From the NCBI RefSeq assembly GCF_000026545.1, contig NC_011601.1: a stretch of 64,000 nucleotides of DNA; one strand, 5' to 3'. Position 1 is the stretch's first letter; every line of letters begins with the position of its first letter. Made by a program: the position numbers. Below are positions 39,001 to 42,000 of this stretch, piece by piece. This stretch comes from Escherichia coli O127:H6 str. E2348/69 (GTDB taxonomy: Bacteria; Pseudomonadota; Gammaproteobacteria; Enterobacterales; Enterobacteriaceae).

Positions 39001-42000
39001 GCCTGACCTTTAGGAACGACCGGATAGAAGAAACCGGTGACGTAAATGCCCTCTTTTTGCAGCTCACGGGCAAATTTCTGCGCCACTACCGCATCGCCAA
39101 GCATGACGGGAATAATGGCGTGATCGGCTCCCGCCAGGGTAAAGCCCGCCGCCGACATTTGCTCACGGAACTGACGCGCGTTCGCCCACAGACGGTCACG
39201 CAGCTCGCTACCCGCTTCAACCATCTCCAGCACTTTGATGGACGCGGCGACAATCGCCGGTGCCAACGAGTTGGAGAACAGGTACGGACGAGAACGCTGG
39301 CGCAGCCACTCAACCACTTCTTTGCGCGCCGCCGTGTAGCCGCCAGAAGCGCCACCCAGCGCTTTACCGAGCGTGCCGGTGATAATATCGACCCGGCCCA
39401 TCACATCGCAGTATTCATGGGAACCACGACCGTTTTCACCGACAAAACCGACCGCGTGGGAGTCGTCTACCATCACCAGGGCATCGTATTTATCTGCGAG
39501 ATCGCAAACACCTTTCAGGTTGGCAATCACGCCGTCCATCGAGAACACACCATCGGTGGCAATCAGCACATGACGCGCACCGGCTTCACGCGCTTCTTTC
39601 AGACGTGCTTCCAGCTCCTGCATATCGTTGTTGGCATAACGATAGCGTTTAGCTTTGCACAGACGCACACCATCAATAATAGACGCGTGGTTCAGTGCGT
39701 CGGAGATAATGGCGTCTTCCGCGCCTAACAGCGTTTCGAACAGGCCACCGTTAGCATCAAAGCAGGAAGAGTAGAGAATGGCATCTTCCATCCCCAGGAA
39801 GGCCGCCAGTTTTTGTTCAAGCTCTTTATGGCTGTCCTGAGTGCCGCAAATAAAACGCACCGAAGCCATGCCGAAACCGTGAGAATCCATTCCCGCCTTT
39901 GCCGCCGCAATCAGATCCGGATGATTCGCCAGTCCGAGATAGTTGTTGGCACAAAAGTTAATGACGTGGCTTCCATCAGCCACAGTGATATCTGCTTGCT
40001 GCGCAGACGTAATAATGCGCTCTTCTTTAAACAACCCTTCCGCCCGTGCGGTTTCCAGATCGTTGGTTAACTGCTGATAAAATTCTCCACGCATTGCGAT
40101 TCTCCAGACAGGGCAAATTCCAGCACATATTACCCAAACTTATAGGTCGCGACGAGATGACGCGTTAACACTTCTGCAAAATTCAGGATAAATAACGTCC
40201 AGCCCCCTCACTTTTGGTGAATGGCTGAAGCCAACGTCATGTAGTGATATGATAGAAGTATTCGTGTCTGAGATTGTCTCTGACTCCATAATTCGAAGGT
40301 TACAGTTATGATCATCGTTACCGGCGGCGCGGGCTTTATCGGCAGCAACATCGTTAAGGCCCTGAATGATAAAGGCATCACCGATATTCTGGTGGTGGAC
40401 AACCTGAAAGACGGCACCAAGTTTGTGAACCTGGTGGATCTGAATATCGCGGACTATATGGATAAGGAAGACTTCCTGATCCAGATTATGGCTGGCGAAG
40501 AGTTCGGCGATGTCGAAGCGATTTTCCACGAAGGCGCATGCTCTTCCACCACCGAGTGGGATGGCAAGTATATGATGGATAACAACTATCAATACTCCAA
40601 AGAGCTGCTGCACTACTGCCTGGAGCGCGAAATCCCGTTCCTGTATGCATCTTCCGCAGCCACTTACGGCGGACGCACCTCCGACTTTATTGAATCCCGT
40701 GAATACGAAAAACCGCTGAACGTCTACGGTTATTCGAAGTTCCTGTTTGATGAATATGTTCGCCAAATCCTGCCAGAAGCAAACTCACAGATTGTTGGCT
40801 TCCGCTATTTCAACGTTTATGGGCCGCGTGAAGGCCATAAAGGCAGCATGGCGAGCGTCGCTTTCCATCTCAACACCCAGCTTAATAACGGTGAATCACC
40901 GAAGCTGTTCGAAGGTAGCGAGAACTTTAAACGCGACTTCGTCTATGTGGGCGACGTGGCAGATGTAAACCTGTGGTTCCTGGAAAATGGCGTTTCCGGC
41001 ATCTTCAACCTCGGTACTGGTCGTGCGGAATCCTTCCAGGCTGTAGCAGATGCTACGCTTGCTTATCACAAGAAAGGCCAAATCGAATACATTCCGTTCC
41101 CGGATAAACTGAAAGGCCGCTACCAGGCATTCACGCAGGCAGATCTGACGAATCTGCGCGCGGCGGGTTACGATAAACCGTTCAAAACCGTTGCCGAAGG
41201 TGTAACGGAATACATGGCTTGGCTGAATCGTGACGCATAAGAGCTCTGCATGAAAATACTGGTGATCGGCCCGTCTTGGGTTGGCGACATGATGATGTCG
41301 CAAAGTCTCTATCGCACGCTCCAGGCGCGCTATCCCCAGGCGATAATCGACGTGATGGCACCGGCCTGGTGCCGTCCGTTATTATCGCGGATGCCGGAAG
41401 TTAACGAAGCCATCCCTATGCCCCTCGGTCACGGGGCGCTGGAAATCGGCGAACGCCGCAAGCTGGGTCATAGTCTGCGCGAAAAACGCTACGACCGTGC
41501 CTACGTCTTACCCAACTCCTTCAAATCCGCGTTAGTGCCTTTCTTCGCGGGGATCCCTCATCGCACCGGCTGGCGCGGTGAAATGCGCTACGGTTTACTC
41601 AACGATGTGCGCGTGCTCGATAAAGAAGCCTGGCCGCTAATGGTGGAACGCTATGTTGCGCTGGCCTATGACAAAGGCGTAATGCGTACCGCACAAGATC
41701 TACCAAAACCGCTGTTATGGCCGCAGTTGCAGGTGAGCGAAGGTGAAAAATCATATACCTGTAATCAATTTTCGCTTTCATCAGAACGTCCGATGATTGG
41801 TTTTTGCCCGGGGGCGGAGTTTGGTCCGGCAAAACGCTGGCCACACTACCACTATGCTGAGCTGGCAAAGCAGCTGATTGATGAAGGTTATCAGGTGGTT
41901 CTGTTTGGCTCGGCGAAAGATCATGAAGCGGGCAATGAGATTCTTGCCGCTTTGAATACCGAGCAGCAGGCATGGTGCCGGAACCTGGCGGGGGAAACAC

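Follow-up and report, generated by a model that had tools for sequence, protein, structure and literature searches.

The best described form of the region between kbl and hldD (rfaD) is that of Escherichia coli K-12, where htrL (yibB) stands between the two genes (kbl-htrL-hldD, b3617-b3619). In a K-12 genome with MG1655 coordinates, yibB/htrL is an 858-bp gene on the minus strand within an interval of 1435 bp, and its product reaches 435.9 bits against the HtrL_YibB family (PF09612). The htrL<>hldD spacer of K-12 was reported as a site bound by the RpoD holoenzyme in SELEX (systematic evolution of ligands by exponential enrichment) and flagged for H-NS, with a predicted hldD promoter TTAATA-17-CATAAA (Shimada et al., PMC3946193). 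Presence or absence of htrL is an already known polymorphism, the gene having been recorded as variably present among isolates from urinary tract infections (PMC8303582). The subject here is the corresponding region of E. coli O127:H6 str. E2348/69 (contig NC_011601.1), placed in a window of 64,000 nucleotides, which is the whole stretch of DNA analysed and to which all positions refer unless stated otherwise. In this strain exactly 213 bp (40095..40307) separate the start of kbl from the start of hldD, and it is highly probable that they represent the ancestral, compact and divergent control region of kbl-tdh and hldD-waaFC(L) rather than the remnant of a deletion.

Over the part compared, the DNA agrees with the E2348/69 record at 100% identity. 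According to both the list of open reading frames (ORFs) and the RefSeq annotation of E2348/69, kbl (glycine C-acetyltransferase, 398 amino acids) occupies 38898..40094 on the minus strand and hldD/rfaD (ADP-glyceromanno-heptose 6-epimerase, 310 amino acids) occupies 40308..41240 on the plus strand, the two being annotated as direct divergent neighbours. Their NCBIfam equivalog scores (746.7 bits for kbl with TIGR01822 and 677.1 bits for hldD) are far above the cut-offs. The first gene, kbl, opens the kbl-tdh operon and is transcribed away from the spacer; hldD is followed by waaF, waaC, and waaL. Only 2 ORFs of at least 60 amino acids touch the interval, both with a TTG start and antisense to hldD, and no credible ORF lies within it. 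A preliminary description of this DNA had given the distance of 213 bp, placed htrL between these genes in K-12, and concluded that it is missing here. All of this holds: the gene is seen at that place in the K-12 genome, and the ORF list, the comparison with K-12, and a tblastn search with K-12 HtrL, which gave no homolog in the 64-kb window (best E value ~1), agree that E2348/69 has no HtrL_YibB gene between kbl and hldD.

The same description had proposed an alignment with the K-12 interval, and its outcome is more than a missing gene. Two near-identical blocks flank the difference: by BLAST, window positions 39995-40198 match K-12 with 99.5% identity and 40260-40407 with 99.3%, so that the kbl-side conserved blocks, the hldD leader hairpin, and the hldD ribosome-binding site (all described below) are common to both strains, as is the orientation of kbl, hldD, waaF, and waaC. 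However, the 213 bp do not simply recur within the K-12 interval, since 61 bp (40199..40259) are replaced in K-12 by a segment of 1283 bp. The left junction falls at 40198|40199, with 40198 the last base common to both strains. The K-12 segment has a GC (guanine plus cytosine) content of 36%, compared with 54% for kbl and 51% for hldD, and contains htrL as its sole gene together with a promoter region of its own, a terminator-like hairpin past the end of htrL (inverted repeat I5), and an AT-rich htrL-hldD spacer, by which the DNA upstream of hldD gains 255 bp that are AT-rich and H-NS-flagged. The promoter that Shimada et al. predicted for hldD maps beside the htrL start codon, within this K-12-specific segment. 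In the 61 bp of E2348/69, neither BLAST against the K-12 interval nor tblastn reveals any remnant of the htrL coding sequence. At the junctions of the K-12 segment no terminal direct or inverted repeats were found, and no mobility genes, integrase, or tRNA accompany it. An 11-nt inverted match at the junctions (I8) was considered as a mobile-element signature and dismissed, its frequency being close to the chance expectation.

The direction of the change is indicated by the outgroups, for which an HldD search with one genome per species yielded 80 loci. The distance between kbl and hldD is 213 bp in E. albertii and in the GTDB representative of E. coli, 214 bp in 2 Citrobacter, 215 bp in Enterobacter cloacae, E. 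asburiae, Pluralibacter, and Pseudescherichia, and 214-216 bp in Kosakonia, Kluyvera, and Pseudocitrobacter, giving an overall range of 212-217 bp for the gene-free compact form in the Enterobacteriaceae sampled. Most Erwiniaceae, Pectobacteriaceae, and Yersiniaceae in which kbl is still adjacent have a gene-free gap of 228-280 bp, and the Salmonella Typhimurium region has been written as ‘kbl<>rfaD’ (PMC10268841). Beyond E. coli the compact spacer occurs in E. albertii and more than 15 other genera. That of E2348/69 is colinear end to end with 18 other compact spacers, the order of blocks being the same throughout: kbl ribosome-binding site, TAATAT block, ACGAGATGA, ATAAATCACG, GGTGAATGGCTGAAG, TGnTATGAT, hairpin, and hldD ribosome-binding site. 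The differences amount to ordinary nucleotide divergence, with a stretch at 40199-40216 and the hairpin stem varying by genus. Because gene-free colinear spacers extend across the outgroups, sequence comparison identifies the compact spacer as the ancestral state, htrL as an insertion, and K-12 as derived. The preliminary description had called the 213 bp the ‘remaining’ interval, and on this point it is contradicted, since a gene-free spacer of about this length is what the outgroups give as original; htrL would never have stood at this position in the E2348/69 lineage.

The opposite history, with an ancestral htrL in E. coli whose deletion in the E2348/69 (B2) lineage left 213 bp, would require repeated independent deletions that each restored an identical length and sequence. 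It would also have to recreate the variable stretch 40199-40216, whose homolog is present in E. albertii and missing in K-12, which a deletion cannot do, and it sits poorly with the low GC content of the segment relative to its flanks and with the lack of an htrL trace in the 61 bp. What can be said for it is that htrL is present in K-12, O157:H7, O103, and O91 strains, and that Enterobacter sp. Ag1 (L023:2562-4000) has an htrL in the same place and pointing the same way, with 81% amino acid and ~77% nucleotide identity to K-12 and a spacer of 39% GC, so the arrangement is not confined to E. coli. Apart from Ag1 and 2 Citrobacter with a different gene, however, all close outgroups sampled are gene-free and colinear at 212-217 bp, and an ancestral htrL appears extremely improbable.

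As for the distribution within the species, the compact form is found in 3465 and the htrL segment in 1959 of the 5424 complete E. coli genomes with a match (the genome set was counted as 5426). The compact spacer is therefore the majority as well as the outgroup state and not a strain-specific deletion. The 2 counts add up exactly to 5424, which leaves little room for compact genomes carrying htrL elsewhere at ≥85% DNA identity. It is accordingly very improbable that E2348/69 possesses a relocated htrL and differs from K-12 in its position only, the more so as the window holds no HtrL homolog, even though parallels can be cited: a 51% homolog lies downstream in the waa cluster of Providencia, Citrobacter sp. 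FP75 combines a compact spacer with a 60% YibB elsewhere in the genome, and some E. coli have a 59% paralog. Compact E. coli alleles fall into groups at ~100%, ~96-97%, and 84% identity to the window, the last comprising 483 genomes. In strain 51008369SK1 (L083:6001-7272), which represents the 84% haplotype, rfaD is annotated with 981 bp versus 933 bp and the rfaD-rfaF spacer is 80 bp versus 9 bp. Strain PKF8 (NZ_CP156813.1) matches only the last 218 bp of the htrL segment and hldD; the query range gave no match on the kbl side, and a local deletion or rearrangement is suggested.

With the compact spacer taken as ancestral, a self-contained AT-rich cassette consisting of the htrL promoter, htrL, and a terminator would have entered the least conserved stretch between 2 back-to-back promoter modules in the ~36% of complete E. 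coli genomes that have it, K-12 and O157:H7 among them. The most likely source would be another enterobacterium and the route homologous recombination, since the cassette seems to have brought ~44 bp of a diverged hldD promoter with it. These rightmost 44 bp of the K-12 segment (L001:4844-4887) are homologous to window 40217-40259, to which they are 59% identical, while they show 70-75% identity to their counterparts in Kluyvera, Pseudescherichia, and Kosakonia and lie next to flanks of 99%. They include the -35 region and the extended -10 allele TGGTATGAT, in place of TGATATGAT in E2348/69. From sequence, the K-12 hldD core promoter allele was apparently imported along with htrL.

Among described elements, the closest to the K-12 segment are the AT-rich, H-NS-bound islets at polysaccharide loci, with which it shares a low GC content, its own promoter and terminator, a patchy distribution (1959 of 5426 E. 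coli genomes), and a position at the edge of the recombination-prone waa locus. In contrast to such islets, it shows no mobility signatures such as an integrase, a tRNA, or flanking direct repeats, and we infer that it was acquired via flanking homology; the likeness, moreover, belongs to the K-12 allele and not to E2348/69.

Other enterobacteria also have genes at this point. Besides the htrL of Enterobacter sp. Ag1, Citrobacter sp. Cu233 (L008:2393-4000) and C. youngae (L070:2399-4000) carry an insert of 1.39 kb encoding a GT4 glycosyltransferase of 383 amino acids on the minus strand, located between positions 130 and 131 of the compact spacer, directly 5' of GCTGAAG and at most ~10 bp from the right junction of the K-12 segment. 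This suggests that the kbl-hldD spacer is a recurrent landing site for accessory genes related to lipopolysaccharide (LPS). By protein identity, the nearest HtrL relatives are found in Cedecea (82%, Cedecea davisae), Citrobacter amalonaticus (80%), and Atlantibacter (76%), followed by some Salmonella (53-61%) and by Providencia, Pectobacterium, and Acinetobacter (~50%). Some of these relatives are named ‘WlaTC/HtrL family glycosyltransferase’ by NCBI, an annotation under which the function stays putative, and a sequence search of PDB with HtrL returned nothing significant. The family has been described as recurrent in LPS and lipooligosaccharide loci (PMC4172580).

The presence of htrL is linked to the waa haplotype, but not strictly, and as a simple tracker of LPS core type it was discarded. 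According to their waaL alleles, E. coli genomes divide into K-12-type (1033), O157-type (1364), window-type (500), and a fourth type (693). All 3 O157-type core loci sampled (L086, L088, and L089, with L085 as the K-12 comparator) have htrL, yet strain AVS0575 (L087) combines a K-12-type waa locus with a compact spacer.

Within the compact form, a conservation map over 17 lineages resolves the interval into 2 conserved modules with a variable stretch between them. This stretch (40199..40216) has the lowest mean conservation of the interval (0.43), and the left end of the K-12 segment falls here. The hldD-side module begins with the conserved block GGTGAATGGCTGAAG (40216..40230, plus strand, mean conservation 0.85), whose presumed function is that of a promoter part, as it contains a weak -35 candidate CTGAAG (40225-40230, plus strand) 17 bp upstream of the -10. 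The latter is the extended -10 TGATATGAT (TGnTATGAT; 40245..40253, plus strand, conservation 0.94) of the predicted hldD-waaFC(L) promoter. The 3' end of TGATATGAT lies 54 nt upstream of the hldD ATG, and in nearly all of the sampled Enterobacteriaceae, Erwiniaceae, Pectobacteriaceae, and Yersiniaceae TGnTATGAT or TGnTATTAT precedes this ATG by 54-62 nt. The hldD gene of the compact form would be transcribed from this extended -10 and the weak -35, with a predicted start near 40260 and a leader of ~48 nt that ends in a predicted ribosome-binding site GAAGG (40295..40299, plus strand), unpaired in the predicted folds. A weak -35 is typical of extended -10 promoters. The preliminary expectation that the interval should still carry the hldD promoters is thus borne out in part: a conserved promoter-like module for hldD is recognizable, whereas the AT-rich K-12 htrL-hldD spacer with its own predicted promoter has no counterpart here. 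General statements in the literature have gmhD/htrM transcription rising at high temperature; sigma-32 and sigma-E sites were sought in the interval by eye and rejected, as neither spacing nor hexamers fit. An hldD start site did not turn up in those parts of the supplements of Kim 2012, Ettwiller 2016, Yan 2018, and the Salmonella sigma-factor ChIP-exo (chromatin immunoprecipitation with exonuclease) study that were searched.

The 5' end of the predicted hldD leader would fold into a stem-loop, GTCTGAGA-TTG-TCTCTGAC, with a single T.T mismatch (40266..40284, plus strand, -6.4 kcal/mol). Hairpins with other stems occupy the same place elsewhere, namely CCGGG/CCCGG in Enterobacter, CCCTGG/CCAGGG in Kluyvera, GTGAAAC/GTTTCAC in Pantoea, and ATCACGC/GCGTGAT in Rahnella. 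In a covariance-model alignment of 33 sequences, 6 of 8 pairs have compensatory changes and the paired share of cells is 82.9%; none of 500 shuffles reaches the observed covariation score, and shifting the stem partner by 1 to 3 columns lowers every pairing measure. An alignment-free folding test on 28 genus-level lineages, which are not fully independent, gives a mean z of -2.05 relative to dinucleotide shuffles (Stouffer Z -10.8), and in each of the 28 the dominant feature of the minimum-energy fold is a stem-loop that starts 3-10 nt into the predicted transcript. Given a plain MAFFT alignment of 45 leaders, in which the stems are out of register, RNAalifold yielded no pairs; the 2 tests above take its place.

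Stem sequences that differ almost wholly between genera and keep their complementarity point to a nucleic-acid structure rather than to a sequence-specific protein site. It is therefore unlikely that the inverted repeat at 40266-40284 works in DNA as an operator for a dimeric regulator instead of as an RNA hairpin, although its position just downstream of the predicted start is a common one for repressor operators and a Rob signal in chromatin immunoprecipitation was reported for the Salmonella kbl<>rfaD region (PMC10268841). The marbox predicted in the same paper maps inside the hldD coding region and off the repeat.

Other roles for the hairpin were considered as well. An RNA thermometer (ROSE or fourU) was set aside, as in 6 folds from 5 genera the hairpin stands apart and the centroids leave the ribosome-binding site unpaired. 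So was an intrinsic terminator or attenuator: a scan of 39995-40407 gave no site, and the hairpin is followed by CTCCATAATTCG with no U-tract. With the covariance models of Rfam 15, no match was found in 39800-40600 at E values up to 1. Within the window, the only Rfam match at the gathering score is JUMPstart (RF01707, 55.2 bits) at 54546-54584 on the minus strand, a known leader element, RfaH-dependent, of the kind to be expected in front of the waaQ operon.

The leader of ompA is an example of an enterobacterial 5'-terminal stabilizing stem-loop. Like such structures, the hldD hairpin is short, begins only a few nucleotides downstream of the predicted 5' end, and is located well upstream of an unpaired ribosome-binding site; in contrast to them, the E. 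coli hldD stem is weak with an internal mismatch, belongs to no Rfam family, and is a prediction from sequence. We infer that the mRNA has a structural element close to its 5' end, in the simplest case a stabilizing stem-loop, which would probably protect or modulate the transcript.

On the kbl side, the conserved module comprises a predicted ribosome-binding site GGAGAA (40100..40105, minus strand, block mean conservation 0.80), a block with the -10-like TAATAT at 40127-40132 (40113..40141, minus strand, mean conservation 0.84), which is a candidate kbl-tdh core promoter, and the conserved blocks ACGAGATGACGC (40152-40163) and CAGGATAAATAACGT (40184-40198; together 40152..40198, minus strand), candidate -35 or regulator sites for kbl-tdh. 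Lrp, which we take to be a regulator of the tdh operon, is named as an example candidate only for these last blocks. From the elements at 40113-40198, kbl would be transcribed leftward.

Several points weigh against taking the interval as an ancestral divergent control region. A scan of 39995-40407 with the sigma-70 consensus gave no site, including no strong match on the kbl side; for hldD this is explained by the weak -35. The start site and promoter activity assigned to hldD are read from sequence, the E. coli hairpin taken by itself is weak (-6.4 kcal/mol, z about -1.4 to -1.8), and the covariance-model alignment was fitted to the hairpin model and so favours the structure, from which the covariation counts partly derive. 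Within Escherichia, the outgroup state is drawn from E. albertii, and for Salmonella from the literature. Finally, the Ag1 htrL at the same site, with its ~77% DNA identity to that of K-12, could be taken for a sign of an old origin of htrL, which would imply many precise losses and is very unparsimonious.

As it was first stated, the absence of htrL is of little import, since htrL/yibB is already counted among the accessory genes of E. coli and kbl stands beside rfaD in thousands of annotated genomes; the finding is ordinary because the polymorphism is visible both in pangenome work (PMC8303582) and in public annotation. What it means for K-12 is more specific. Because its arrangement is derived, K-12 is a poor reference for a ‘normal’ hldD upstream region, and regulatory results from its AT-rich, H-NS-flagged htrL-hldD spacer are not transferable to the compact two-thirds of E. 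coli or to most other enterobacteria. The conserved control core of hldD, composed of the extended -10 module and the covarying leader hairpin, offers a testable handle on expression of the heptose pathway and the inner core. Modest new leads come from the hairpin and from the recurrent insertion point. A combined proposal, tentative and somewhat doubtful as a whole, is that the hairpin, present in at least 28 Enterobacterales lineages, is an undescribed cis-acting RNA element that would set the stability or expression of the hldD-waaFC mRNA and possibly take part in the reported heat induction of hldD/htrM, and that the spacer next to it is a recurrent landing site for LPS-modifying genes (htrL and the GT4 gene).

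Two further observations concern neighbouring genes of the window. The waaL allele (43293-44510, plus strand) is rare, with ≥99% identity in 4 of 5426 complete E. coli genomes and ~92% in 496 others. In O157:H7 strain 2571 (L086:9391-10426), the annotation marks waaH, the second gene upstream of kbl, as frameshifted; in the E2348/69 window it is intact (36590..37624, minus strand).

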